From assembly GCA_964447415.1 (NCBI GenBank), contig CAYUSN010000001.1, forward strand, positions 121,727-185,726: 64,000 nt of DNA, in the 5' to 3' direction. Under the pieces are notes generated by a model. The model saw only the letters and a program-made list of their open reading frames with translations, made no database searches and was not told the DNA's origin. This DNA comes from an uncultured Candidatus Saccharibacteria bacterium (lineage in GTDB: Bacteria > Patescibacteriota > Minisyncoccia > Phycocordibacterales > EsbW-18). Shown here piece by piece: positions 48,651 through 62,951 of this stretch. Each line of letters opens with the position of its first letter. Position 1 is the first letter of the stretch. Made by a program: the position numbers and the translations under genes.

Positions 48651-48656
48651 GCCTCG

Positions 48657-48705
48657 GCCCACTTTATTTTAGAAAACACGAAAACCGGTCACGCGGTTTT
48701 TTTTG
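48657..48705 (+). terminator. Intrinsic terminator (AAAACCG-gtcacg-CGGTTTTTTTT).
   Basis: Short stem plus T8. Confidence 0.4.
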
Positions 48706-48864
48706 ATATCTTTATGTTCTTTCATCGGATTTTCCATAATGTAAGAAGATAAAATTTTTCTAAAGTTGTTTTGTCTCGACCGTTGACAACAGTTGGCAAT
48801 CGTTTAAGATTAGTTCCCAGATAGGACAGAATAGTTCTGTCCCACGAAGTACCTTGAAAAGGAG

Positions 48865-49449
48865 ATGGTCATGATTCAGGCAATCGAAAGAAGGTCTCAT
48901 CCGGAAGAATCCCCACGCTTCCACGGTGGATTCGCGGTTCAGGGGATTCTCAGCGATCTGGTGATTCCCGCAGTTCCAGGCGAGTGCTACATGTACTCAT
49001 CTGAGTTCACGGTGGGTCGGCCGCTGTACGTGTTCATGAAGTGCAAGGCAAACAAGAGCCGCCCCATCGGCGCCGCGGAAGACCTCGGCCACGAGGCCAA
49101 CCTGCTCTTCTTGTTCGGCAATCCGAACGAGGTTCAGGTCTGCGCGATCAAGGAGGCACACCACTCCGGCCTACTCGGCGACTCCGTCAACGGTGAGGTG
49201 TTCGGCGAGACATGGATTGCGCCCGCCGGGATTACCGCCGAAGACTTCTACAAGCTTTGCTCACAGCAGGATGTGGCGAAGCTGGTGGAGGTTTGCCGGG
49301 CGGCGTGCTCGGAGCGCCGTGGGTTCATCGCACTGGATCCGGGAGCGGTCATTGCCATGATGACCGATTGCGGCAAGTACGGTCTGTTCTTCGTGAAGGG
49401 ACTCACCCAGGCATCGATTCAGATCGACGCCTGCCACATCTTGCTGTAG
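48865..49449 (+). CDS. Hypothetical protein, 194 aa, GC-rich.
   Basis: Strong Shine-Dalgarno AAAAGGAGATGG. TTGACA-17-TAAGAT promoter at about 48770-48800. Perfect palindrome GGACAGAA-tag-TTCTGTCC at 48808-48826 between the promoter and the Shine-Dalgarno. Confidence 0.5.
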   Translation: MVMIQAIERRSHPEESPRFHGGFAVQGILSDLVIPAVPGECYMYSSEFTVGRPLYVFMKCKANKSRPIGAAEDLGHEANLLFLFGNPNEVQVCAIKEAHHSGLLGDSVNGEVFGETWIAPAGITAEDFYKLCSQQDVAKLVEVCRAACSERRGFIALDPGAVIAMMTDCGKYGLFFVKGLTQASIQIDACHILL

Positions 49450-49471
49450 CTCTACGGAGCACAGTGGAAGC

Positions 49472-49505
49472 ATCTGCCGCCAAGAAACCTTTGGCGGCAG
49501 ATTTA
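49472..49505. terminator. Bidirectional terminator between convergent genes (ATCTGCCGCCAA-gaaacc-TTTGGCGGCAGAT then TTTAATTTTAT).
   Basis: 12-bp stem with T-rich flanks. Confidence 0.55.
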
Positions 49506-49514
49506 ATTTTATAT

Positions 49515-49991
49515 CTATAAAATTTTTCGCCACACGTACCCGATGTCATCATCCGGCGGGGTTACCTCTCCAACTCTCTTAAAACCCAACGTGTCATGGA
49601 AACTCCAAGACTCATCATGAGAACCGGGGCTGTATAAAAGAATTTCAGAAAACCCGAGCCTCTGCACTTCTTCCACCAGTTTTGATTTGAGCACCTCCCC
49701 AATACCTCTTCTCTTGAACTTTACTGCAATGACGTAAAACTCAACGGGGTTATCTGTTTGCACAAACGGTTTCAAGTAGTCAGCCACTTTTTTAAAGCCG
49801 ACAATTCCTACAATTTCACTACCTTCTGTTGCTACAAAAAAACCGGAATCTTTCTTTGGAGCATTTTGAGTGTACAGTTCTAATTCACCTGAAAGCTCCC
49901 TCAGAAATTCCAAGTCTGTCCAATACAAAGCAAAAATTTCTTCAACCGCTTTTTGGTCACTTTTCTGAAATTCTCGGATAATCATCTGCAT
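49515..49991 (-). CDS. GNAT family N-acetyltransferase.
   Basis: Motif A (…KRRGIGEVL…) and GNAT fold layout. Confidence 0.75.
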   Translation of the reverse strand: MQMIIREFQKSDQKAVEEIFALYWTDLEFLRELSGELELYTQNAPKKDSGFFVATEGSEIVGIVGFKKVADYLKPFVQTDNPVEFYVIAVKFKRRGIGEVLKSKLVEEVQRLGFSEILLYSPGSHDESWSFHDTLGFKRVGEVTPPDDDIGYVWRKIL

Positions 49992-50123
49992 ATTTTAACA
50001 AAACTGTGCGATATGTGAATTAGTATTTAGAATGAACCTTCAATCTTTGTGAGGTGTATTCAAAGATTTTCTGAAAAGATTGGGTACATAATAAAAACCC
50101 CCGCCAAACGGCGGGGGTTTTTA

Positions 50124-50666: not shown

Positions 50667-50879
50667 AAAAAGAAGCCCCGATGGGCTCGCTTATAATACC
50701 TTTTTCCGCCTGTTTTGCAAGGGTTCCTGTATTGGTGTAGTGGGGCCGTTTTTGCGGCCCCACGTGTGCGCAATGAGCCCCTATTTTTAGAAAGCCTCTG
50801 CAGGGGACGGCGGTCCCGAAAGGAGAAAACCGCCAGTAGGCGGTTTTTGTGCTTTCAAAAATACGGGGCGAGTGAAGGG
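50667..50879 (-). promoter_or_regulatory. Candidate L20-responsive leader in the infC-rpmI intergenic region, ~210 nt.
   Basis: GC hairpins read on the minus strand (GGGGCCGTTTTTGCGGCCCC, AAACCGCC-agta-GGCGGTTT). The position matches the known L20 autoregulatory site. Confidence 0.25.
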
Positions 50880-51404
50880 CTATTTGCGCTCCAACACCAT
50901 GGACATGCCTTTGGGGTTCTTGGCAGGTGCCTCCGCGATCTTAAATTCAACCGCCAAAAGCTTCAAAAACCGCTCCATACGCTCCTTGAGGAAGGCGTCT
51001 CCGAGGAATTTGGCCCGTCCGCGCAGATACAGTTCAAACCGCACGCGGTGTCCGTCGGCAAGCCAGGCAGAGGCCTGTTTTGCCTTGATACCCATAGAGT
51101 CCTCCGACGTGCCGATTTTTATCTGCACGCTTTTTGTTTCTGTCTGATGCGATTTTGCTTTTACGTCGCGCGCTTTCTTTTTCTGCTCATAGAGATATTT
51201 GCCGAACTCGATGATTTTTGCGACCGGCGGCACCGCGTTGGGGGAGATTTCAACTAAGTCCAATTCTGCCTCGCGCGCCTTTGCCATCGCTTCCTCACGT
51301 GAAATAACGCCGATGTTTTCGCCATCTGCGCCGATAACGCGAAGCTCCGGGGCACGAATGCCTTCGTTAACGCGTGTACCTCCTTTGTCTCGTGGATTAC
51401 TCAC
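50880..51404 (-). CDS. infC: Translation initiation factor IF-3.
   Basis: IF-3 N- and C-terminal domains (…INEGIRAPELRVIGADGE…). The true start may be a non-ATG codon. Confidence 0.9.
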   Translation of the reverse strand: MSNPRDKGGTRVNEGIRAPELRVIGADGENIGVISREEAMAKAREAELDLVEISPNAVPPVAKIIEFGKYLYEQKKKARDVKAKSHQTETKSVQIKIGTSEDSMGIKAKQASAWLADGHRVRFELYLRGRAKFLGDAFLKERMERFLKLLAVEFKIAEAPAKNPKGMSMVLERK

Positions 51405-51491
51405 TTGTGGGCTGATACTACTACAACTTCACGTATTTTTCAATCTGCTTTACGTATAGATAAAATTTTCATAAAGCCACTTCTAAAAATA

Positions 51492-51524
51492 CTTGACAAT
51501 TCCATATAAAAATGTATTTTATAA
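51492..51524 (+). promoter_or_regulatory. Promoter-like TTGACA…TATAAT with 21-nt spacing, upstream of the radical-SAM gene.
   Basis: Perfect hexamers but suboptimal spacing. Confidence 0.3.
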
Positions 51525-51575
51525 TAAGAATTCAAAGAATGGGTGCCAATACCCATGAAAAGGAGGAGGCACGCC

Positions 51576-52628
51576 ATGTGCTCTTTGAAAACTCAAACAG
51601 CAACAAGTTCACGACCAGGCTGTGCGTGGATTACAGTGAATCGCGTGTGTAACTTCAGGTGCTCCTGGTGTTACGCGCAGGGTACCGAGTACAACCCAAA
51701 CCAAAGTATGACGCTCGAGCTTGCAGAAGCACTCGTGTCTCTTCTCGAATCATTGGGTATCCGAGACGTTACAGTGATTGGAGGAGAGCCGACTCTCTGG
51801 AAACACCTGATTGAATTCAACGCGCTCTGTGCTGGCAGGGGAATCAAGACGGGGCTCGTAACAAACGCCATGCGTTTCGGAATCGATGGTTTTTGGGAGC
51901 GCTACATGAAGGCTCCCAACAATCACGCGGGCGTCTCGGTGAAGGCGTTTGATGAAAAAAGCCTTCAAGCGGTTGCCGGTGTTGCGCGCTTCGATCTCTC
52001 AAAAAAGGGCATCGAGCGTGCGGTCAAGTTCTTCAACTGTGGCGTAAGCACTGTCTACAACACCGCTTGTGCGGACTCTCTCGTAGAGATTGCCCGATTT
52101 GCGATGGAGTGTGGGGCCAGGTCCTTGAGAATAAGCCCCTGTACCCCGGCACTTTCCGGAAAGAAGGTCGACGGATCCTACGTGGTGGAGCCTCATACGC
52201 TCGTGAAGAACGTGGTAGGTATCTATCCGCAACTTCATGAGATCACGCACGGACAGGTCAGTTTCTCGATGAAGCTCCCGCTATGTCTGTGGCCGCGGGA
52301 ATTCATCGACACCCTGATTCGGCGAAACCAAATCAGCACGGTTTGCCAGCTCCAACACCGATCAGGTATTATCTTCGATACGGACGGGCATCTTGCAATC
52401 TGCAACAGTTTGTTCGACTATCCGGTCGGTAAGTACGGCGAGGACTTTAATGATGCTGACTCGCTTCTTGCCGTCGTGAACAGACCTGACGTTGTGGCTC
52501 TCTACGACAGACTTACTTCCTATCCGTCGAAGAAGTGTGTCGAGTGTGAGAAGTTCAACATCTGTGCGGGCGGATGTCCTCTGTACTGGACACTCTACCA
52601 TCCTGAGGAGCTCATCCCCGGCTGGTGA
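51576..52628 (+). CDS. Radical SAM / SPASM-domain peptide-modifying enzyme.
   Basis: CNFRCSWC (Cx3Cx2C) radical-SAM cluster. C-terminal SPASM cysteines (…CVECEKFNICAGGCP). AAAGGAGGAGG Shine-Dalgarno before ATG at 51576. The longer ORF reaches 51543. Confidence 0.8.
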   Translation: MCSLKTQTATSSRPGCAWITVNRVCNFRCSWCYAQGTEYNPNQSMTLELAEALVSLLESLGIRDVTVIGGEPTLWKHLIEFNALCAGRGIKTGLVTNAMRFGIDGFWERYMKAPNNHAGVSVKAFDEKSLQAVAGVARFDLSKKGIERAVKFFNCGVSTVYNTACADSLVEIARFAMECGARSLRISPCTPALSGKKVDGSYVVEPHTLVKNVVGIYPQLHEITHGQVSFSMKLPLCLWPREFIDTLIRRNQISTVCQLQHRSGIIFDTDGHLAICNSLFDYPVGKYGEDFNDADSLLAVVNRPDVVALYDRLTSYPSKKCVECEKFNICAGGCPLYWTLYHPEELIPGW

Positions 52629-52669
52629 GAGAACCCCGCCAATCGAAGCACCGAAAGGAGGTGATACAA

Positions 52670-52825
52670 ATGGAGTTGCTGCTCGAGATTCCGGTCACGG
52701 GCATTCAGCCGACCTGTCGTCCCATCGGGCTCAGCACCGCCTCTCGAGAGGGGCAGTGTGATCCGCCGCCGGACGACTGCGCGAATCCGGACGACTGCGA
52801 CTGTGACTGCGCCCCGCCGCACTGA
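52670..52825 (+). CDS. Candidate RiPP precursor peptide, 51 aa. Leader MELLLEIPVTGIQPT followed by a Cys/Asp/Pro-rich core with 6 Cys.
   Basis: 13-nt perfect Shine-Dalgarno GAAAGGAGGTGAT 4 nt before ATG. Lies 42 nt after the radical-SAM stop. Followed by a terminator. About 62% GC. Confidence 0.55.
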   Translation: MELLLEIPVTGIQPTCRPIGLSTASREGQCDPPPDDCANPDDCDCDCAPPH

Positions 52826-52857
52826 CGGCACCCTCTCTGGGGGCACCAGAGACATCC

Positions 52858-52897
52858 CTCGGCAAGAAGATTGCCGAGGGATTTATTTTTTGTCACA
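52858..52897 (+). terminator. Intrinsic terminator (CCCTCGGCAA-gaagat-TGCCGAGGG then ATTTATTTTTTG).
   Basis: Hairpin plus T tract after the precursor ORF. Confidence 0.6.
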
Positions 52898-52905
52898 ATG
52901 GGGCA

Positions 52906-53550
52906 ATGAACGAGGTAATTAGTCTATCTTTTAAATACTCAAAAATTCTTGAAAAAGAAAGAATTACTAACACGATCAAACGTCTTAGTTGGTACAAAGA
53001 GAATAAGTATAACGTTGATTTAATCGGTTTCCCAAAAGAACTCAATAGAGAAAGGATTTTTTCTGTTTCTGATACTGATATTTCGAACGCTATTGATGCT
53101 GAATACGATGAGACAAAATTTGTTGAATCAGAAAGGTCATTAAGAGAACTTTTTCCCCTATATCACGACCGGCTCACATGTTTTTTGGATGAGATAAAAC
53201 TGTCCATTATTCCGTCCATTGTTGTTCAGCTGACCATGTATGGTATGGGCGGGAGCTATTCTTTACCAAACAAAGCGATAGTGAATATCGCAAAATATTA
53301 CGGCGTCGGATTACTGAGAAACATGCTCCATGAAATTATTCACCTGCATATTCAACATCTTATCGACAGGTACAAACTCAGCCAGTGGCAGAAAGAAAGG
53401 GTTGTTGACTTGCTTATAGAGAAACTTGTTCCAGAACTCGCAAAGCAACAAAAAATACCAATTGATATTTCTGTTGTTGATGAAGCGTTCAACAAATATT
53501 ATCCGGATGTACCACGAGTAATACAAAATATTGCCGTCTCCCACGGATAA
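52906..53550 (+). CDS. Hypothetical protein with an HExxH motif (HEIIHLH), AT-rich.
   Basis: ORF with HExxH. About 36% GC, unlike its neighbours. Confidence 0.5.
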   Translation: MNEVISLSFKYSKILEKERITNTIKRLSWYKENKYNVDLIGFPKELNRERIFSVSDTDISNAIDAEYDETKFVESERSLRELFPLYHDRLTCFLDEIKLSIIPSIVVQLTMYGMGGSYSLPNKAIVNIAKYYGVGLLRNMLHEIIHLHIQHLIDRYKLSQWQKERVVDLLIEKLVPELAKQQKIPIDISVVDEAFNKYYPDVPRVIQNIAVSHG

Positions 53551-53571
53551 AATCACCTGTTGCAAGTAAGT

Positions 53572-55188
53572 TTAAGAGAGGGCGGGGAGGTCGACGAAGA
53601 AGGTGGAGCCTTTTCCTCGACCTTCTGATTCTGCCCAGATGCGGCCGCCGTGCGCTTCCACAATTTTCTTTGCGATAAATAGTCCGTAGCCGGTTGAGTG
53701 CGGATTGATGTTGCGTGACTCTTCTCCGCGACCGCCTTCGGTAAACAACACTTGCATATCCTCAGGGGTGAGTCCGATACCGGTGTCCTTCACCGAAAAG
53801 ATAATCCGTTTTCCTGAGCGCGACAGCGAGACGGTGATGGAGCCCGACGGCGTGTAGTTGGTCGCGTTGTTGATGAGGTTGCCGATGAGGTGATTGGTGA
53901 GTTGGTCGGCGTCGCCGCTGATCTGATAGTCGCCCGGCGCGATATGTGAAGAAAGCGTCAGTCCTTTTTTCTTTGCATTTTCCTCAAGCATCGGAAGCGC
54001 GTCCTCAAGTGTTTTTTTGAAGTCAAACGGCTGTATCTGATAGGCGACCTTTCCGGTCTTGAAGTCCGAGATTCGCAAGAACTCTTTAATTTCGTTGATT
54101 GCTTTTTGGTCTTTTGCGAGCGCTTCTTTGACCATCGCGCGGGTCTCATCGTTGATGGGACCAAACGTGTCGGTCAACAGCGCGTCAAAGGCGCCTGAGG
54201 AGTCGGTGAGATAGCCCTTCACTTCGTGGGTGATGAACCGCATGGTATCAACCTGTTGTTTGTTCATGACCTGCAGTTGTTCACGCAGGGCCACCTCGCG
54301 TTTGACACTTTTCACGAGCGCGGCGCCAATTGCCATCACAAAAAGAAATGTTACCGCAATGACGTAGCGCAGGTTTTCAATGTGACGCACAAAAAGCATT
54401 GCAAATACCAAACCGGCGAGTGCGATGACAAGCATTTGTGCGCCGATGATTTTCACACTGAATGCATGATAGCGGACAATCATAAAGGCAAGGAATGCCA
54501 AAAAGAGCACCATACCGATCGGTCCGATGAGGTTCACTTCATATACCAAGAAATAGTCGCCGGCGAGATTAGTGAGCGTGAATACTAAAAGAAAGAGTGC
54601 AGAGGCAACAGAGAGCATCAGTATCTGCTTGCGGGCCACTCCTTCCGACGTTTTTCGCAGATAGTGAAACGAAAGATACACCACAAAAAGTATTGAGGCG
54701 AATTCAAGCGCATAAATGTAGTACCAGAGTGAGCCGTAAATTGCTTCACAATTTATCAAATCAAAAGCAATCATATTAAACTGCGTCGGAAGGAGCACGA
54801 TGACCGGCGTATACAAAAGAACCATTATTAGATTTTGTCTGAAACTCAACTCGGAACCTTTAAAGTATATCCATGTGAAGTACACAATGAGGTACACCAG
54901 CATGGAGTGAAAGAGAGCGGAGAGCTCCCACCCGAAATACACAAAATCGGCGCGAACCGCAATCCATTGAATAATCTCATTGAGTAGTAAGAGTGCAAAA
55001 AGAACGGAAAGCGCAAGCAGCAATCTCGATTGCAACTGTTGGGTGTTCTTTAAAAAAATGAACAGACCGAAAAAAACGGAAAAAATTGCGATGGGGAGAT
55101 ACGCATAATACATCAACGTCGGCGCAATTGTCGTGTCAAAAAGACCCCAGAGATTTGCGATTGAATCAGGACAAAGCAGGACATCCAT
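53572..55188 (-). CDS. Sensor histidine kinase with a polytopic (about 7-8 TM) N-terminal domain.
   Basis: H-box FITHEVKGYL. HATPase_c G-boxes (DTGIGL…GYGLFIAK). Several N-terminal hydrophobic helices. Confidence 0.85.
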   Translation of the reverse strand: MDVLLCPDSIANLWGLFDTTIAPTLMYYAYLPIAIFSVFFGLFIFLKNTQQLQSRLLLALSVLFALLLLNEIIQWIAVRADFVYFGWELSALFHSMLVYLIVYFTWIYFKGSELSFRQNLIMVLLYTPVIVLLPTQFNMIAFDLINCEAIYGSLWYYIYALEFASILFVVYLSFHYLRKTSEGVARKQILMLSVASALFLLVFTLTNLAGDYFLVYEVNLIGPIGMVLFLAFLAFMIVRYHAFSVKIIGAQMLVIALAGLVFAMLFVRHIENLRYVIAVTFLFVMAIGAALVKSVKREVALREQLQVMNKQQVDTMRFITHEVKGYLTDSSGAFDALLTDTFGPINDETRAMVKEALAKDQKAINEIKEFLRISDFKTGKVAYQIQPFDFKKTLEDALPMLEENAKKKGLTLSSHIAPGDYQISGDADQLTNHLIGNLINNATNYTPSGSITVSLSRSGKRIIFSVKDTGIGLTPEDMQVLFTEGGRGEESRNINPHSTGYGLFIAKKIVEAHGGRIWAESEGRGKGSTFFVDLPALS

Positions 55189-60261: not shown

Positions 60262-60538
60262 GGTGTTTCCTTTCTGGCCGTATGGCCGGTTAGGTGCTGC
60301 GTGAGAGTGACCCTTTCTGCTGTCAATGAACCTCTGAGGCGCACTGTACAGAAGTGAGGATGAAATAAATTTCAAACGCGTTTGTGTTGATAAGGTGACT
60401 CCTCCCAGCGTAGCAAACTAAGATAAAGAAAAGGTAAATTCATTGCATTCACAGCATTGACTTTCTGTGTATCAGTGGTAACTTACTTTTAAGTAACCAA
60501 TCCTGGTTACTCTGATGTTCTTTGAAAGGAGCTGCGTC

Positions 60539-60739
60539 GTGAGCAAAAGCAACGTAGTCCCCGCCGCGGTACCGGACCAGCCGGACACCGCACCCAACAC
60601 CACCGAAGGTCACCGGCCCACCAGGATCAAGCAGGTGCCCGACAACGACCCGCACGGAGCCGAAGTGCTCAAGCCGGGTTCGCCCGGCCGCCGGTTCTCC
60701 CCCGAACGGAGGATGGGCAAGGACGGCTGTGGCTACTAG
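60539..60739 (+). CDS. Candidate RiPP precursor peptide, 66 aa, GTG start, Pro/Asp/basic-rich with a single Cys. C-terminus …RRMGKDGCGY.
   Basis: GAAAGGAG Shine-Dalgarno 8 nt upstream of GTG. Ends 72 nt before the second radical-SAM/SPASM gene, with a hairpin-plus-U attenuator in between. About 62% GC. Confidence 0.45.
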   Translation: MSKSNVVPAAVPDQPDTAPNTTEGHRPTRIKQVPDNDPHGAEVLKPGSPGRRFSPERRMGKDGCGY

Positions 60740-60810
60740 AGCCACACCGAGGCCTCACAGCCCTCCTGATCGCCACGGCGGTCAGGAGGGTTTCTACTTA
60801 TAAGGAGGTT

Positions 60811-62139
60811 GTGGTGAAAAACAAACCGAAGTGGAGCAATTTTCAGACAAGAGCGGTGCTTCCAAACGGGAGCATACTCCTGAAGAGTACGCTTACCGGT
60901 GCCGTGGTTTCGATAGGCTGCCATGCCGAGACCGCGGTGACCAGTTGGATTGACGGGAAGGAAGAAACCATCCCGTCGGTCGTCAAGACACTCCTGGATC
61001 CCAATGTTGGTCTACTCGTTCCTGCTGAGTACGATGAGTACTCCGCATGGCGGGACAAGCTTTTGGATCGACGGAACAACGCCGCACACACCTTTACCCT
61101 CCACTTTCTCCCAACGACACTGTGCCAGCTTGAATGCTCGTACTGTTTCGAGAACGGGAGTCAGCGGATGAAGGGTATGCGGCCGGAGCTTGTGGGGACG
61201 TCGCGCGAGTGGCTTGCAACTTACCTTGCGAACCACCCGGAGATTGACACGGTGCGCCTCGCGCTTTTCGGGGGAGAACCTCTCCTGCAAAAAGACATCG
61301 TCAAGCTCGGGCTGGAAGCATTTCATTCACTCGCTCGCGAGAGAGGGCTCGACTTCTGGACCGAACTGACCAGCAACGCCGAGCTGCTCAACGAAGCGAC
61401 TGCCAAGATGCTGTCCCAACACGAGTGGCGTCGGGTTCAGGTTACGCTCGACGGTCCGGAGGAGGTGCATGATGCTCGGAGACATGGTCGGAACATGCGA
61501 CCGACGTTTGAGAGAATCATGCGCAATGTGCAGATGCTTCTCTCGACCGACTACATTCCAAAGGTCGACATCAGAATTTCCTTCGACCTTTCGAATGCCG
61601 ATCGGGTTCCGGAACTGATTCGGTACCTTGCCGGACTCGACAGGCAGCACCGCATCAACCTGAGTCTTGGGCTCATTACACCAACACTCCAGAACCGTGA
61701 CAATGCGAAAAACGAAGCGCTTCTTGCCGAGAAGGCGCTCGCGGTGTGGAAACTGGCGAAACAGCACGGCTTTGAAATCCCGGGGGAGTTCATCACGGGT
61801 CCGTGGTGTGTGGCCATAGCCAAGCACTCGGCGGTTCTACAACCGGACGGCACCTTGCAGAAGTGCTTCTGTACCGTCGGTCGAGAAGGGTACAACTTCG
61901 GAACGATTTACGAACAACCGAAGGGCGGGTATCTGTACGACTCGCGATTCGAACACTTCCGCCGAACGGATCAGTGCATCGAGGAGAAGTGCCAGTATCT
62001 GCCCATGTGTGGCGGCGGGTGCATCCACGATGCCATAGTTGCGGCCGGCGGCGCAGAAGGGGCTCGCAACCGTTTTTGCCAGAAGACCCTTCTTACCAAA
62101 ATGAACAAAGGTCTCCTGGTACTCAATCATGTTTCCTGA
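60811..62139 (+). CDS. Radical SAM / SPASM-domain peptide-modifying enzyme (second, distinct paralog).
   Basis: CQLECSYC (Cx3Cx2C) radical-SAM cluster. C-terminal SPASM cysteines (…CIEEKCQYLPMCGGGC). AAGGAGG Shine-Dalgarno before GTG. Confidence 0.8.
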   Translation: MVKNKPKWSNFQTRAVLPNGSILLKSTLTGAVVSIGCHAETAVTSWIDGKEETIPSVVKTLLDPNVGLLVPAEYDEYSAWRDKLLDRRNNAAHTFTLHFLPTTLCQLECSYCFENGSQRMKGMRPELVGTSREWLATYLANHPEIDTVRLALFGGEPLLQKDIVKLGLEAFHSLARERGLDFWTELTSNAELLNEATAKMLSQHEWRRVQVTLDGPEEVHDARRHGRNMRPTFERIMRNVQMLLSTDYIPKVDIRISFDLSNADRVPELIRYLAGLDRQHRINLSLGLITPTLQNRDNAKNEALLAEKALAVWKLAKQHGFEIPGEFITGPWCVAIAKHSAVLQPDGTLQKCFCTVGREGYNFGTIYEQPKGGYLYDSRFEHFRRTDQCIEEKCQYLPMCGGGCIHDAIVAAGGAEGARNRFCQKTLLTKMNKGLLVLNHVS

Positions 62140-62167
62140 TGCTCTTTTGCAACACACGTTGTTGCGA

Positions 62168-62200
62168 GGTCACCACCCGGGCGGGAGGTGACCTTTTTTG
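62168..62200 (+). terminator. Intrinsic terminator (GGTCACCACCCGG-gcg-GGAGGTGACC then TTTTTTG).
   Basis: Hairpin plus T6 after the second radical-SAM gene. Confidence 0.55.
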
Positions 62201-62213
62201 TTACCATGGGTTT

Positions 62214-62951
62214 ATGTTCGAACAACATTTACCACACTATATTCATACGTTTGAAAATGATTCCCGGTGGCGGACACGTACGTCAGACCACTACATTTTT
62301 CACTATTTTGAAAACTCAGCCGCCGAAAAGGACATAGACCACATTATAGAGAGGCAAGAAAAGGCATACGCAAAAATTATGTCGTTTCTAAGTGTTCCGG
62401 AACCGAGGCGTCCCATTGAGTATTTTTTCTATCCCGACGAGGACACAAAAAAGGAACTCATGGGTGATGATTGGTACGCGCAGTCTATTTACAACGAGTT
62501 TCGGGTCCACGTGTTGTATACCGAAAAAAATAAACCGCTCGGGGAACACGAAGACACACACCTCCTCTCGCTTCCGTGGGGTCAATCAATCGCATTTTTT
62601 GCCGAAGGGTTAGCTGAATATATGGTCGGACATGCGTGGGACGGGACACCGCATCTACAGTACGTACGAGAAGGGTACGAGAAAAAACTCTACCCGACAC
62701 TTGAGAGTTTTATGCGTCACGACGCGTGGCTTGAAACGGATGACACATACGCTATTTATTTTTATTCTCTTGCGGGGGTGTTTACGTCATTTCTCATTTC
62801 CCGGTTTGGAAAAGAAAAATTTGAAATGGTGTACACACAGCTGAACAGAAAAAATACCAAAGAAGAAAACAGTACGGTGTGTGAGTCAGTACTGGGAACA
62901 AGTATTTTATCCCTGGAGACAGTATTCAAGGATTCTTTAAAAAATGTTTAA
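62214..62951 (+). CDS. Putative zinc metallopeptidase, 245 aa: HExxH (GEHEDTH) plus a downstream Glu (AEGLAEY).
   Basis: HEDTH followed about 18 aa later by ExxxE. Start MFEQHL at 62214. The 5' part of the 61803 ORF overlaps the radical-SAM gene and is an artefact. Confidence 0.5.
   Translation: MFEQHLPHYIHTFENDSRWRTRTSDHYIFHYFENSAAEKDIDHIIERQEKAYAKIMSFLSVPEPRRPIEYFFYPDEDTKKELMGDDWYAQSIYNEFRVHVLYTEKNKPLGEHEDTHLLSLPWGQSIAFFAEGLAEYMVGHAWDGTPHLQYVREGYEKKLYPTLESFMRHDAWLETDDTYAIYFYSLAGVFTSFLISRFGKEKFEMVYTQLNRKNTKEENSTVCESVLGTSILSLETVFKDSLKNV

Follow-up and report, generated by a model that had tools for sequence, protein, structure and literature searches.

A radical SAM/SPASM enzyme, a cysteine- and aspartate-rich precursor and an HExxH protein form a probable RiPP cassette in a Candidatus Saccharibacteria genome

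A 64,000-nt stretch of contig CAYUSN010000001.1 from an uncultured Candidatus Saccharibacteria bacterium (hereafter the window) carries, on its forward strand, three consecutive genes encoding a 350-aa radical S-adenosylmethionine (SAM) enzyme of the SPASM type (the maturase, 51576-52628), a 51-aa cysteine-rich peptide (the precursor, 52670-52825) and an orphan 214-aa HExxH...E protein with a zincin fold (52906-53550). The three are inherited together as one cassette, and the locus is very probably dedicated to a radical SAM-modified peptide that is made on the ribosome and altered after translation (a RiPP), as it combines a small precursor, a conserved leader, a variable core and co-inheritance of the peptide with its enzyme, the general hallmarks of RiPP loci. 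Judged from sequence, the cassette resembles radical SAM/SPASM RiPP systems and is a member of no named family, all three components being uncurated. A sequence-only reading of this DNA had proposed an enzyme with a CNFRCSWC motif and a C-terminal SPASM cysteine cluster, a 51-aa open reading frame (ORF) with a 13-nt anti-Shine-Dalgarno complement, an intrinsic terminator and an HExxH protein, and this layout is borne out throughout, except that the small ORF begins 41 nt and not 42 nt past the enzyme gene.

The enzyme family is real but small, with 411 relatives recovered in a word-indexed homologue search and 178 at E ≤ 1e-30 in an exhaustive search of 1.84 billion cluster representatives. 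Assemblies, a set of 185,579 species genomes and metagenomes from JGI supplied the locus DNA around enzyme homologues. Co-occurrence counts given below refer to 66 non-redundant loci, each with a near-full-length enzyme homologue, cysteine conservation in the enzyme to a 121-member alignment, and core composition to 59 non-redundant precursors. Curated models of NCBIfam and Pfam were compared with the window enzyme and eight relatives from other phyla, and with 10 family peptides for the precursor; L001 (Saccharibacteria) served as the closest relative for DNA comparison.

The maturase ORF is open from a GTG at 51543 to 52628, and translation likely starts at the ATG at 51576, because the Shine-Dalgarno sequence AAAGGAGGAGG (51559-51569, +) lies 6 nt upstream, a 90%-identical homologue (P0001) begins with MCSLKTQ, and the N-termini encoded further upstream are unconserved. 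The CNFRCSWC motif, at about 51648, and a match to Pfam Radical_SAM (PF04055; E 8.9e-20, 72 bits against a cutoff of 29.5) place the protein in the radical SAM superfamily, and the cluster cysteines C25, C29 and C32 are conserved in 95-96% of the homologues. The C-terminal half displays the pattern C-x13-G-x4-C ... C-x2-C-x5-C-x3-C; conservation is at least 99% for the auxiliary cysteines C237, C257, C276, C321, C324, C330 and C334, and 88% for C189. The usual final SPASM cysteine is missing in 111 of the 121 family members, and the upstream residues C189 and C237 may stand in for it. No match of the Pfam SPASM model to the maturase was found at E ≤ 1; homologues in JGI are labelled 'radical SAM protein with 4Fe4S-binding SPASM domain'. 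An AlphaFold model of the maturase (predicted local distance difference test score, pLDDT, 86.9) shows an alternating beta/alpha core whose best structural matches are SuiB, anSME, SkfB and CteB, with template modelling (TM) scores of about 0.6, and SkfB is also a weak sequence match in the PDB (E 2.6e-4). The conserved cysteine pattern and the fold matches would agree with the proposed SPASM cluster, the missing final cysteine and the unmatched Pfam model less so. Since only 24 residues precede the cluster motif, the maturase lacks a RiPP recognition element (RRE), and a winged-helix domain was not seen in the AlphaFold model.

Public annotation represents this enzyme poorly. Gene calls from NCBI and Logan shorten it to 306 aa (P0145) with a start at ATG 51708, after the CxxxCxxC motif, and a spurious 37-aa ORF is called upstream of the shortened gene. 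A frameshifted maturase in related strains was considered and rejected, as the DNA of L087 is 100% identical to the window, so the 306-aa call is a start-codon mis-call. Some family members are longer, at 560-590 aa (P0216, P0260, P0276 and P0292), and carry a C-terminal extension of about 220 aa with a conserved 'HPS' motif; this extension may resemble uracil-DNA-glycosylase-like folds. These proteins were rejected as Rosetta-stone fusions of the enzyme with the HExxH protein, since their C-terminal domain is a different one without HExxH.

The precursor consists of a leader, MELLLEIPVTGIQPTCRPIGLSTASRE(G), holding the family motif TGI.P...P.G, and a core, QCDPPPDDCANPDDCDCDCAPPH, with five Cys and seven Asp. 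Six cysteines interleaved with Asp had been assigned to the C-terminal half; the total of six is correct, and five belong to the core, as C16, a position taken by Tyr in the closest relative, is part of the leader. An adjacent small Cys-rich ORF occurs at about 90% of the 66 loci, usually 20-80 nt downstream of the enzyme gene on the same strand, in phyla from Patescibacteria to Firmicutes, Bacteroidota and Proteobacteria, and was not seen at five loci (L090, L098, L118, L041 and the truncated L121). Common to the encoded peptides are a Cys-rich C-terminal tail and, at the N-terminus, a motif of approximately h-(T/S)-G-(I/V)-x-P-x-x-x-P-x-G. The leader motif is recognisable from Saccharibacteria as far as a metagenome-assembled genome (MAG) of Christensenellaceae (SKTEIQPQIKLMGYG), and remains constant across phyla while the cores vary. 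A profile search for precursors gave 10 significant matches, the peptides being short and the database very large. This pairing of ORF and enzyme across phyla confirms that the maturase has a genuine adjacent precursor; loss or frameshift of the small ORF in close relatives, which would have spoken against it, was not the pattern observed, as they keep the ORF beside the enzyme with the shared leader motif and a Cys-rich core. In a Vogelbacteria MAG (L006, 7038-7200), a one-base indel within a homopolymer of six C interrupts a precursor ORF that is intact in every other respect and reads MEELATLVRVTGVP...TTPNDCDCDCAPPHCGVS across the indel; faulty assembly, a pseudogene or phase variation at this tract could account for the split.

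Compared with L001, 17 of 153 nt of the precursor ORF differ, ten of them at third codon positions, and the codon changes comprise eight synonymous and five non-synonymous ones, with P33A as the lone non-synonymous change in the core. By this substitution pattern, the ORF evolves as a coding sequence under purifying selection, and it is present in NCBI as a called protein (P0133). A frame open by chance in GC-rich DNA, with the enzyme acting on another substrate, would agree with the shortness of the ORF, with the antisense ORFs that overlap it and with the failure of every family model to recognise it. However, this explanation is effectively refuted by the recurrence of the small ORF with a common leader motif at about 60 loci across phyla, by the bias of its substitutions to the third codon position, and by the conserved 8-13-nt Shine-Dalgarno sequence before it and the terminator after it. 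The arrangement of the genes is variable in places: L003 (6182-6689), L028 and L031 encode two different precursors per maturase, in tandem or flanking the enzyme gene, L020 has the order precursor, HExxH gene, enzyme, and L019 carries a second, paralogous maturase.

The signals around the precursor gene are conserved and point to its heavy translation. Translation is preceded by an extended Shine-Dalgarno sequence, GAAAGGAGGTGAT (52653-52665, +), which is the 13-nt complement described earlier. Perfect complementarity of at least 5 nt to the canonical 16S 3' end is found before the precursor gene at 29 of 32 loci (median 9, maximum 13), whereas background ORFs encoding 150 aa or more at the same loci reach this length in 24% of cases and never go beyond 9 nt. 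Within the window, 48 of 62 crude ORFs have no Shine-Dalgarno sequence, in keeping with the earlier description of an otherwise Shine-Dalgarno-less genome, and strong ones precede six of the 62, including the maturase. Upstream, a candidate sigma-70-like promoter (TTGACA, 16 nt, TATTTT; 51493-51520, +) was picked up by a consensus scan with 10 of 12 positions matching, the consensus match alone marking it. Between the precursor and HExxH genes lies an intrinsic terminator or attenuator (52854-52892, +), with a GC-rich stem of 12 bp at 52854-52882 followed by the T-run TTATTTTTT. A hairpin with a T-run follows the precursor gene at nearly all of 39 loci. Its minimum free energy averages -22.7 kcal/mol, that of random 75-mers -12.6 kcal/mol (p about 1e-16 by Mann-Whitney test), and the hairpin sequences are mutually unrelated, so that what is conserved is the structure. 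The HExxH ORF of the window starts 14 nt past the terminator end, and since it has no Shine-Dalgarno sequence and no promoter room between hairpin and start codon, it is probably expressed at a low level by read-through.

The HExxH protein carries HEIIH at residues 142-146, and H142, E143, H146, E164, G116-S117-Y118 (the GGSY motif) and R19 are invariant in its family. E164 is located 18 residues past the second His. An HExxH motif with a Glu 17-19 residues later and a catalytic Tyr constitutes the gluzincin signature, and the protein presents an HExxH helix and a downstream Glu on a zincin fold, as expected of a gluzincin-type zincin. Its homologues directly follow the precursor on the same strand at 20 loci, and unbiased clustering of neighbouring genes revealed a second family, of about 218 aa and likewise with an HExxH motif, that occupies this position and strand at 17 other loci. 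Both families are joined by profile-profile comparison (141 columns with HExxH and a downstream K-E; probability 94%, E 1.5e-7), which brings the loci with a same-strand partner of this superfamily to at least 36 of the 66. Many of the remaining loci lie on truncated contigs or come from distant Firmicutes and Bacteroidota. Known gluzincins (the M1 aminopeptidase catalytic domain, thermolysin-like enzymes) and minimal zincins (Wss1) show no sequence-level kinship with the HExxH protein, which differs from them as a stand-alone protein of 214 aa with its own helical N-terminal half. No signal peptide was detected in it. From its motif and position, the protein may act as a metallopeptidase that removes the leader, a role whose chances we regard as evenly balanced.

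A different function for this partner, compatible with thioether formation by the maturase, would be that of an alpha-ketoglutarate/Fe oxidative tailoring enzyme acting on the Asp-rich core. ChlH, BpmH and PflC hydroxylate Asp, His or Gln in RiPPs, and ChlH-type enzymes combine a zincin-like fold, hydroxylation at the Asp beta-carbon and frequent radical SAM partners (PMC12636437). The window core offers seven Asp, and the invariant R19 could, speculatively, bind a carboxylate. However, membership in this family (IPR026337 in the definition of PMC12636437) was rejected, as none of 12 HExxH family members matches the HEXXH-domain models of NCBIfam at E ≤ 1, and the HExxH protein, at about 214 aa, is much shorter than these hydroxylases, with 342 residues in ChlH chain 8s5f. 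Together with the invariant HExxH-x17-E and Tyr, which form a hydrolytic gluzincin signature, these differences make an oxidative role improbable.

Comparison with named families places the maturase in none of them. The sequence-only reading had suggested membership in the SCIFF/ranthipeptide (PapB) or QhpD groups, which is not sustained: enzyme models score far below cutoff, precursor models remain unmatched and the RRE is lacking. The maturase scores 61.5 bits with the MoaA model (cutoff 325), 46.4 with PapB (NF047865; cutoff 340, with 46-71 in eight relatives), 43.3 with StsB (NF045574; cutoff 625) and 33.2 with TIGR04463 (cutoff 525). In relatives, the SCIFF maturase model TIGR03974 reaches 44.7 of 425 bits (L019), the SkfB model (TIGR04403) 40-64 of 300, and the AlbA model (NF012164) 42 of 850 in a single case; SCIFF (TIGR03974), QhpD (TIGR03906), CcpM and AlbA are outside the best 25 models for the maturase itself. 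Grouping with anSME or another clade acting on protein substrates was also checked, and the maturase belongs to none, the anSME model (TIGR03942) giving 49.5 against 349. The 10 family peptides have no match to the SCIFF precursor model TIGR03973 at E ≤ 10, which agrees with the earlier remark that the peptide is unlike known SCIFF sequences, and no real match to any other precursor model, the Ser-Asp repeat adhesins being hit by low complexity only. No sulfatase or dehydrogenase genes occur near the cassette in the window neighbourhood.

Relative to characterised thioether systems, the cassette is distinguished by the lack of an RRE, the order enzyme-precursor-terminator-partner, the orphan zincin and the (CxC)n cores. 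The PapB/PapA (freyrasin) system likewise pairs a SPASM radical SAM enzyme with a Cys- and Asp-rich precursor, and its NCBIfam model, with 330 positions, is similarly compact. PapB joins the sulfur of Cys to the beta-carbon of Asp or the gamma-carbon of Glu, and between Cys and Asp it accepts zero to six residues (CX0D to CX6D; PMC9413430). The native motif of PapA is CX3D, whereas the core in the cassette contains CDC/DCDC. The PapB leader is expected to bind an RRE, like the leaders of other RiPP maturases (PMC9413430), and no orphan HExxH partner was noted for PapB in the text consulted, whereas the maturase has 24 residues before its cluster motif and the cassette includes such a partner. 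SCIFF systems with CteB/Tte1186-type maturases share with the cassette a six-Cys precursor of about 45-50 aa beside a SPASM enzyme, in their case a thioether synthase, and the lack of a linked exporter; their leader motif is unrelated. CteB has an N-terminal RRE, which the cassette maturase does not. QhpD/QhpC forms Cys-to-Asp/Glu thioethers with a radical SAM/SPASM enzyme, as proposed for the cassette, but QhpD acts on a subunit, about 100 aa long, of a dehydrogenase whose other subunits are encoded next to it, and the cassette locus has no such genes. anSME, with about 350-370 aa, is a compact, RRE-less SPASM enzyme like the maturase (TM 0.62) and acts on a peptide Cys; the cassette differs in having no nearby sulfatase gene and a dedicated, leader-bearing small precursor. 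StsB, AlbA, SkfB and ThnB carry RREs and were found via RRE-based mining, which would miss the cassette family. A description of the cassette family was not found by full-text literature searches, an absence of evidence only, as many subscription papers lie outside their coverage.

The composition of the cores indicates which chemistry the maturase may perform. Cys makes up 27% of the core residues, Asp 17% and Gly 10%; a core has from 2 to 24 Cys (median 6), and CxC is the dominant spacing, accounting for 151 of 328 Cys-to-Cys intervals. The middle residue of CxC is Asp in 74 of the 151, followed by Asn (16), Gln (12), Arg (9), Val (9), Ala (7), Lys (7) and Pro (6). At L006, L008, L009, L017 and L097, whose enzymes are only 44-48% identical to that of the window, the tail P-[DN]-D-C-D-C-[DN]-C-[AGT]-P is found again. 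Within this conserved tail of the window sub-clade, Asp and Asn interchange; since both are known acceptors, Asn serving as a beta-carbon thioether acceptor for NxxcB, a chemical rather than a charge role of these residues is favoured. Formation of Cys-Asp thioethers, in line with the Cys-Asp crosslinked core suggested by the sequence-only reading, is plausible in the clade of the window on the basis of its cores. In the wider family, Asp is not universal and the CxC middle residue varies, so that a single Cys-Asp chemistry cannot cover all members: either the acceptor preference has diverged, or the links are made to alpha-carbons, as in sactipeptides, a linkage that would accommodate varied residues between the cysteines. 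In StsA, a CxCxC core is converted to Cys-to-alpha-carbon thioethers (sactionines) by StsB (PMC10288494).

That the enzyme makes thioether crosslinks of either kind appears slightly favoured from these sequence features. The same cassette could instead support another reaction, such as formylglycine formation (as by anSME), C-C or C-O crosslinking (SuiB, PqqE), epimerisation (EpeE) or some other Cys-adjacent modification. anSME, which converts Cys to formylglycine, and SuiB, which forms a C-C crosslink, are the top structural matches of the maturase (TM 0.62-0.63), the anSME model aligns over its full length (residues 34-347) at 49.5 bits, the maturase is compact and RRE-less like anSME, and cysteine is the sole universal feature of the cores. 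However, the multi-Cys cores of characterised SPASM maturases are mostly thioether substrates, as in PapA, SCIFF, sactipeptides and StsA, and the named models all fit the maturase equally poorly, so that the non-thioether chemistries are not specifically favoured; we consider them rather unlikely.

It has also to be considered that the peptide mainly binds metal in the manner of a metallothionein, or is a cofactor precursor comparable to those of pyrroloquinoline quinone, mycofactocin or the copper-binding bufferins, and is not primarily a crosslinked antimicrobial or signal, with the enzyme tailoring only part of it and thiolates and carboxylates staying available for metal. The CxC, CxxC and CC spacings and abundant Asp recall metallothionein motifs, the cassette has neither a linked exporter or immunity gene nor a signal peptide, histidine kinases adjoin it at seven loci, and it is kept in very small genomes. 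However, simple metal binding needs neither a conserved leader nor a dedicated radical SAM enzyme, the interchange of Asp and Asn in the tail speaks against a purely charge-based or ligand role, and the kinase adjacency varies even between strains, leaving this proposal with only a slim chance.

Under thioether formation, the preferred chemistry, the maturase and precursor would be co-transcribed from the promoter near 51493, most transcripts would end at the hairpin, and read-through would supply little of the HExxH mRNA; enzyme and precursor would be made abundantly. The maturase would bind the leader directly and cleave SAM to a 5'-deoxyadenosyl radical, which would take a hydrogen from a core residue; the resulting carbon would be joined to a Cys sulfur held at an auxiliary Fe-S cluster. 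As many as five thioether rings could form within the peptide, each at a cost of -2 Da. In the clade of the window, the acceptors would probably be the Asp or Asn residues flanking Cys in P-[DN]-D-C-D-C-[DN]-C-A-P, and the link could be at the beta-carbon (ranthionine) or the alpha-carbon (sactionine), the sequence allowing either. The HExxH protein would then cut the leader in the cytoplasm, and the product may act inside the cell or exit by an unlinked route, as the cassette has no linked exporter.

Taken as a whole, a thioether-forming maturase with its precursor, an HExxH leader peptidase and regulation by read-through is a reading to which we lean only narrowly. Several observations weigh against it. 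Cores without Asp number 9 of 59, those without Asp or Glu 8, and those without Asp, Glu or Asn 3, as exemplified by CQCRCANCKCNCFCAQCK and CGACGACGACGAC. The models of named thioether synthases are far below cutoff for the maturase (PapB 46/340, StsB 43/625), whose structure is as close to anSME and SuiB as to CteB and SkfB. Distant Firmicutes and Bacteroidota loci have no HExxH partner, and HExxH members found no match in Pfam, NCBIfam or PDB sequences (12 members for the HEXXH models). An extension of the same scheme, which we hold to be speculative and on the whole unlikely, would see in the cassette a new RiPP class concentrated in the candidate phyla radiation (CPR)/Patescibacteria, in which an RRE-less SPASM enzyme recognises TGI.P...P.G directly, the core becomes a ladder of tiny Cys-Asp/Asn thioether rings, a new RiPP-dedicated zincin acts as peptidase or in oxidative tailoring, and the acidic, hyper-crosslinked product serves episymbiosis, for instance through metal handling or host interaction. 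If true, such a ladder of small neighbouring rings would be a topology not seen in known sactipeptides and ranthipeptides.

To our knowledge, CPR/Patescibacteria, including Saccharibacteria, are generally held to be almost devoid of natural-product genes. The sequence-only reading had likewise called secondary metabolism rare in such genomes; the enzyme is indeed rare overall, yet CPR bacteria are among its main hosts, with Patescibacteria making up at least 15 of 38 full-length matches in the genome collection. One survey reported zero biosynthetic clusters in Patescibacteria MAGs (PMC11613949), and the large radical SAM RiPP compendium of the Mitchell laboratory is restricted to RRE-associated enzymes. 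As the maturase has no RRE and public annotation shortens it past the cluster motif, the cassette has probably been missed by mining. The locus is a compact and conserved peptide-modification cassette with CPR genomes among its main hosts, in which enzyme and precursor form a tractable two-gene system that could reveal a new crosslink topology on (Cys-Asp)n tracts. In addition, the HExxH partner offers a new RiPP-associated zincin family, and through the cassette a specialised metabolite from episymbiotic bacteria becomes approachable for the first time.

Horizontal exchange of the cassette is indicated by comparison with relatives and strains. The earlier argument for acquisition relied on a locus GC content of about 60%, which is not what the genes show: the maturase gene has 53% GC (GC at third codon positions, GC3, 0.62) and the HExxH gene 36%, against a window mean of 51%, and the 63% GC of the precursor ORF is due to its amino-acid composition. 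A GC island was accordingly rejected, the maturase gene having a genome-like composition. The transfer itself is nevertheless supported on other grounds, namely the comparison with L001, strain breakpoints and the patchy taxonomic distribution of the enzyme. Against L001, only 51538-53436 aligns (84.8% identity), covering the maturase, the precursor and most of the HExxH gene in otherwise different context. In close strains (L085, L086 and L088), a 2.7-kb segment with infC and the cassette genes (50868-53591) shows 99.4% identity, whereas the flanking rplT/rpmI are 93% identical (flanks 93-95%) and the DNA beyond 53591 is unrelated; there, ndk and glycosyltransferase genes in the other strains take the place of the histidine kinase and SET-domain genes of the window. 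These differences point to recent recombination, one breakpoint lying immediately past the HExxH gene. The closest relative of the maturase in the genome collection is from a Candidatus Saccharibacteria MAG (L018, 89% amino-acid identity), and a Sterolibacterium homologue is 52% identical, compared with 37-47% for most Saccharibacteria. Because the cassette is the only DNA common to L001 and the window, and given the strain breakpoints and this identity pattern, it has been exchanged horizontally.

The window neighbours of the cassette are infC on one side and a histidine kinase and a SET-domain gene on the other. Across the 64-kb window, no tRNA genes (ARAGORN) and no Rfam families at the gathering threshold were detected. 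A multi-pass membrane histidine kinase stands beside the cassette at 7 of the 66 loci (window 53572-55188, -; L009, L011, L033, L039, L095 and L116), and response regulators lie near it at four; these neighbours possibly hint at regulation, and the kinase adjacency is not kept between strains. Upstream, a strain-specific insertion (48656-50122) separates a SLOG-domain gene from rplT and is absent from L085 and L088. It contains a 194-aa ORF (48865-49449) of unusually high GC3 (0.76) with its own Shine-Dalgarno sequence and no family match, and a GNAT acetyltransferase gene (49515-49991, -).

About 8 kb downstream, the window harbors a second, unrelated radical SAM RiPP-like cassette (60515-62951, +). 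It comprises a 74-aa ORF (60515-60739) ending in ...RRMGKDGCGY, a radical SAM/SPASM enzyme of 442 aa (60811-62139) with an RRE-sized N-terminal extension of about 100 aa, and a downstream ORF of about 245 aa containing an HExxH motif (GEHEDTHLL). Among the models, TIGR04463 fits the second enzyme best, at 148 of 525 bits; CefB, geopeptide, PapB and QhpD come next, and none of the five reaches its cutoff. Kinship between this HExxH ORF and the HExxH partner of the first cassette was considered and dropped, as it has no sequence support. In L001, the second cassette directly adjoins the cassette described here, and the second-cassette enzymes of the window and L001 are 91% identical.

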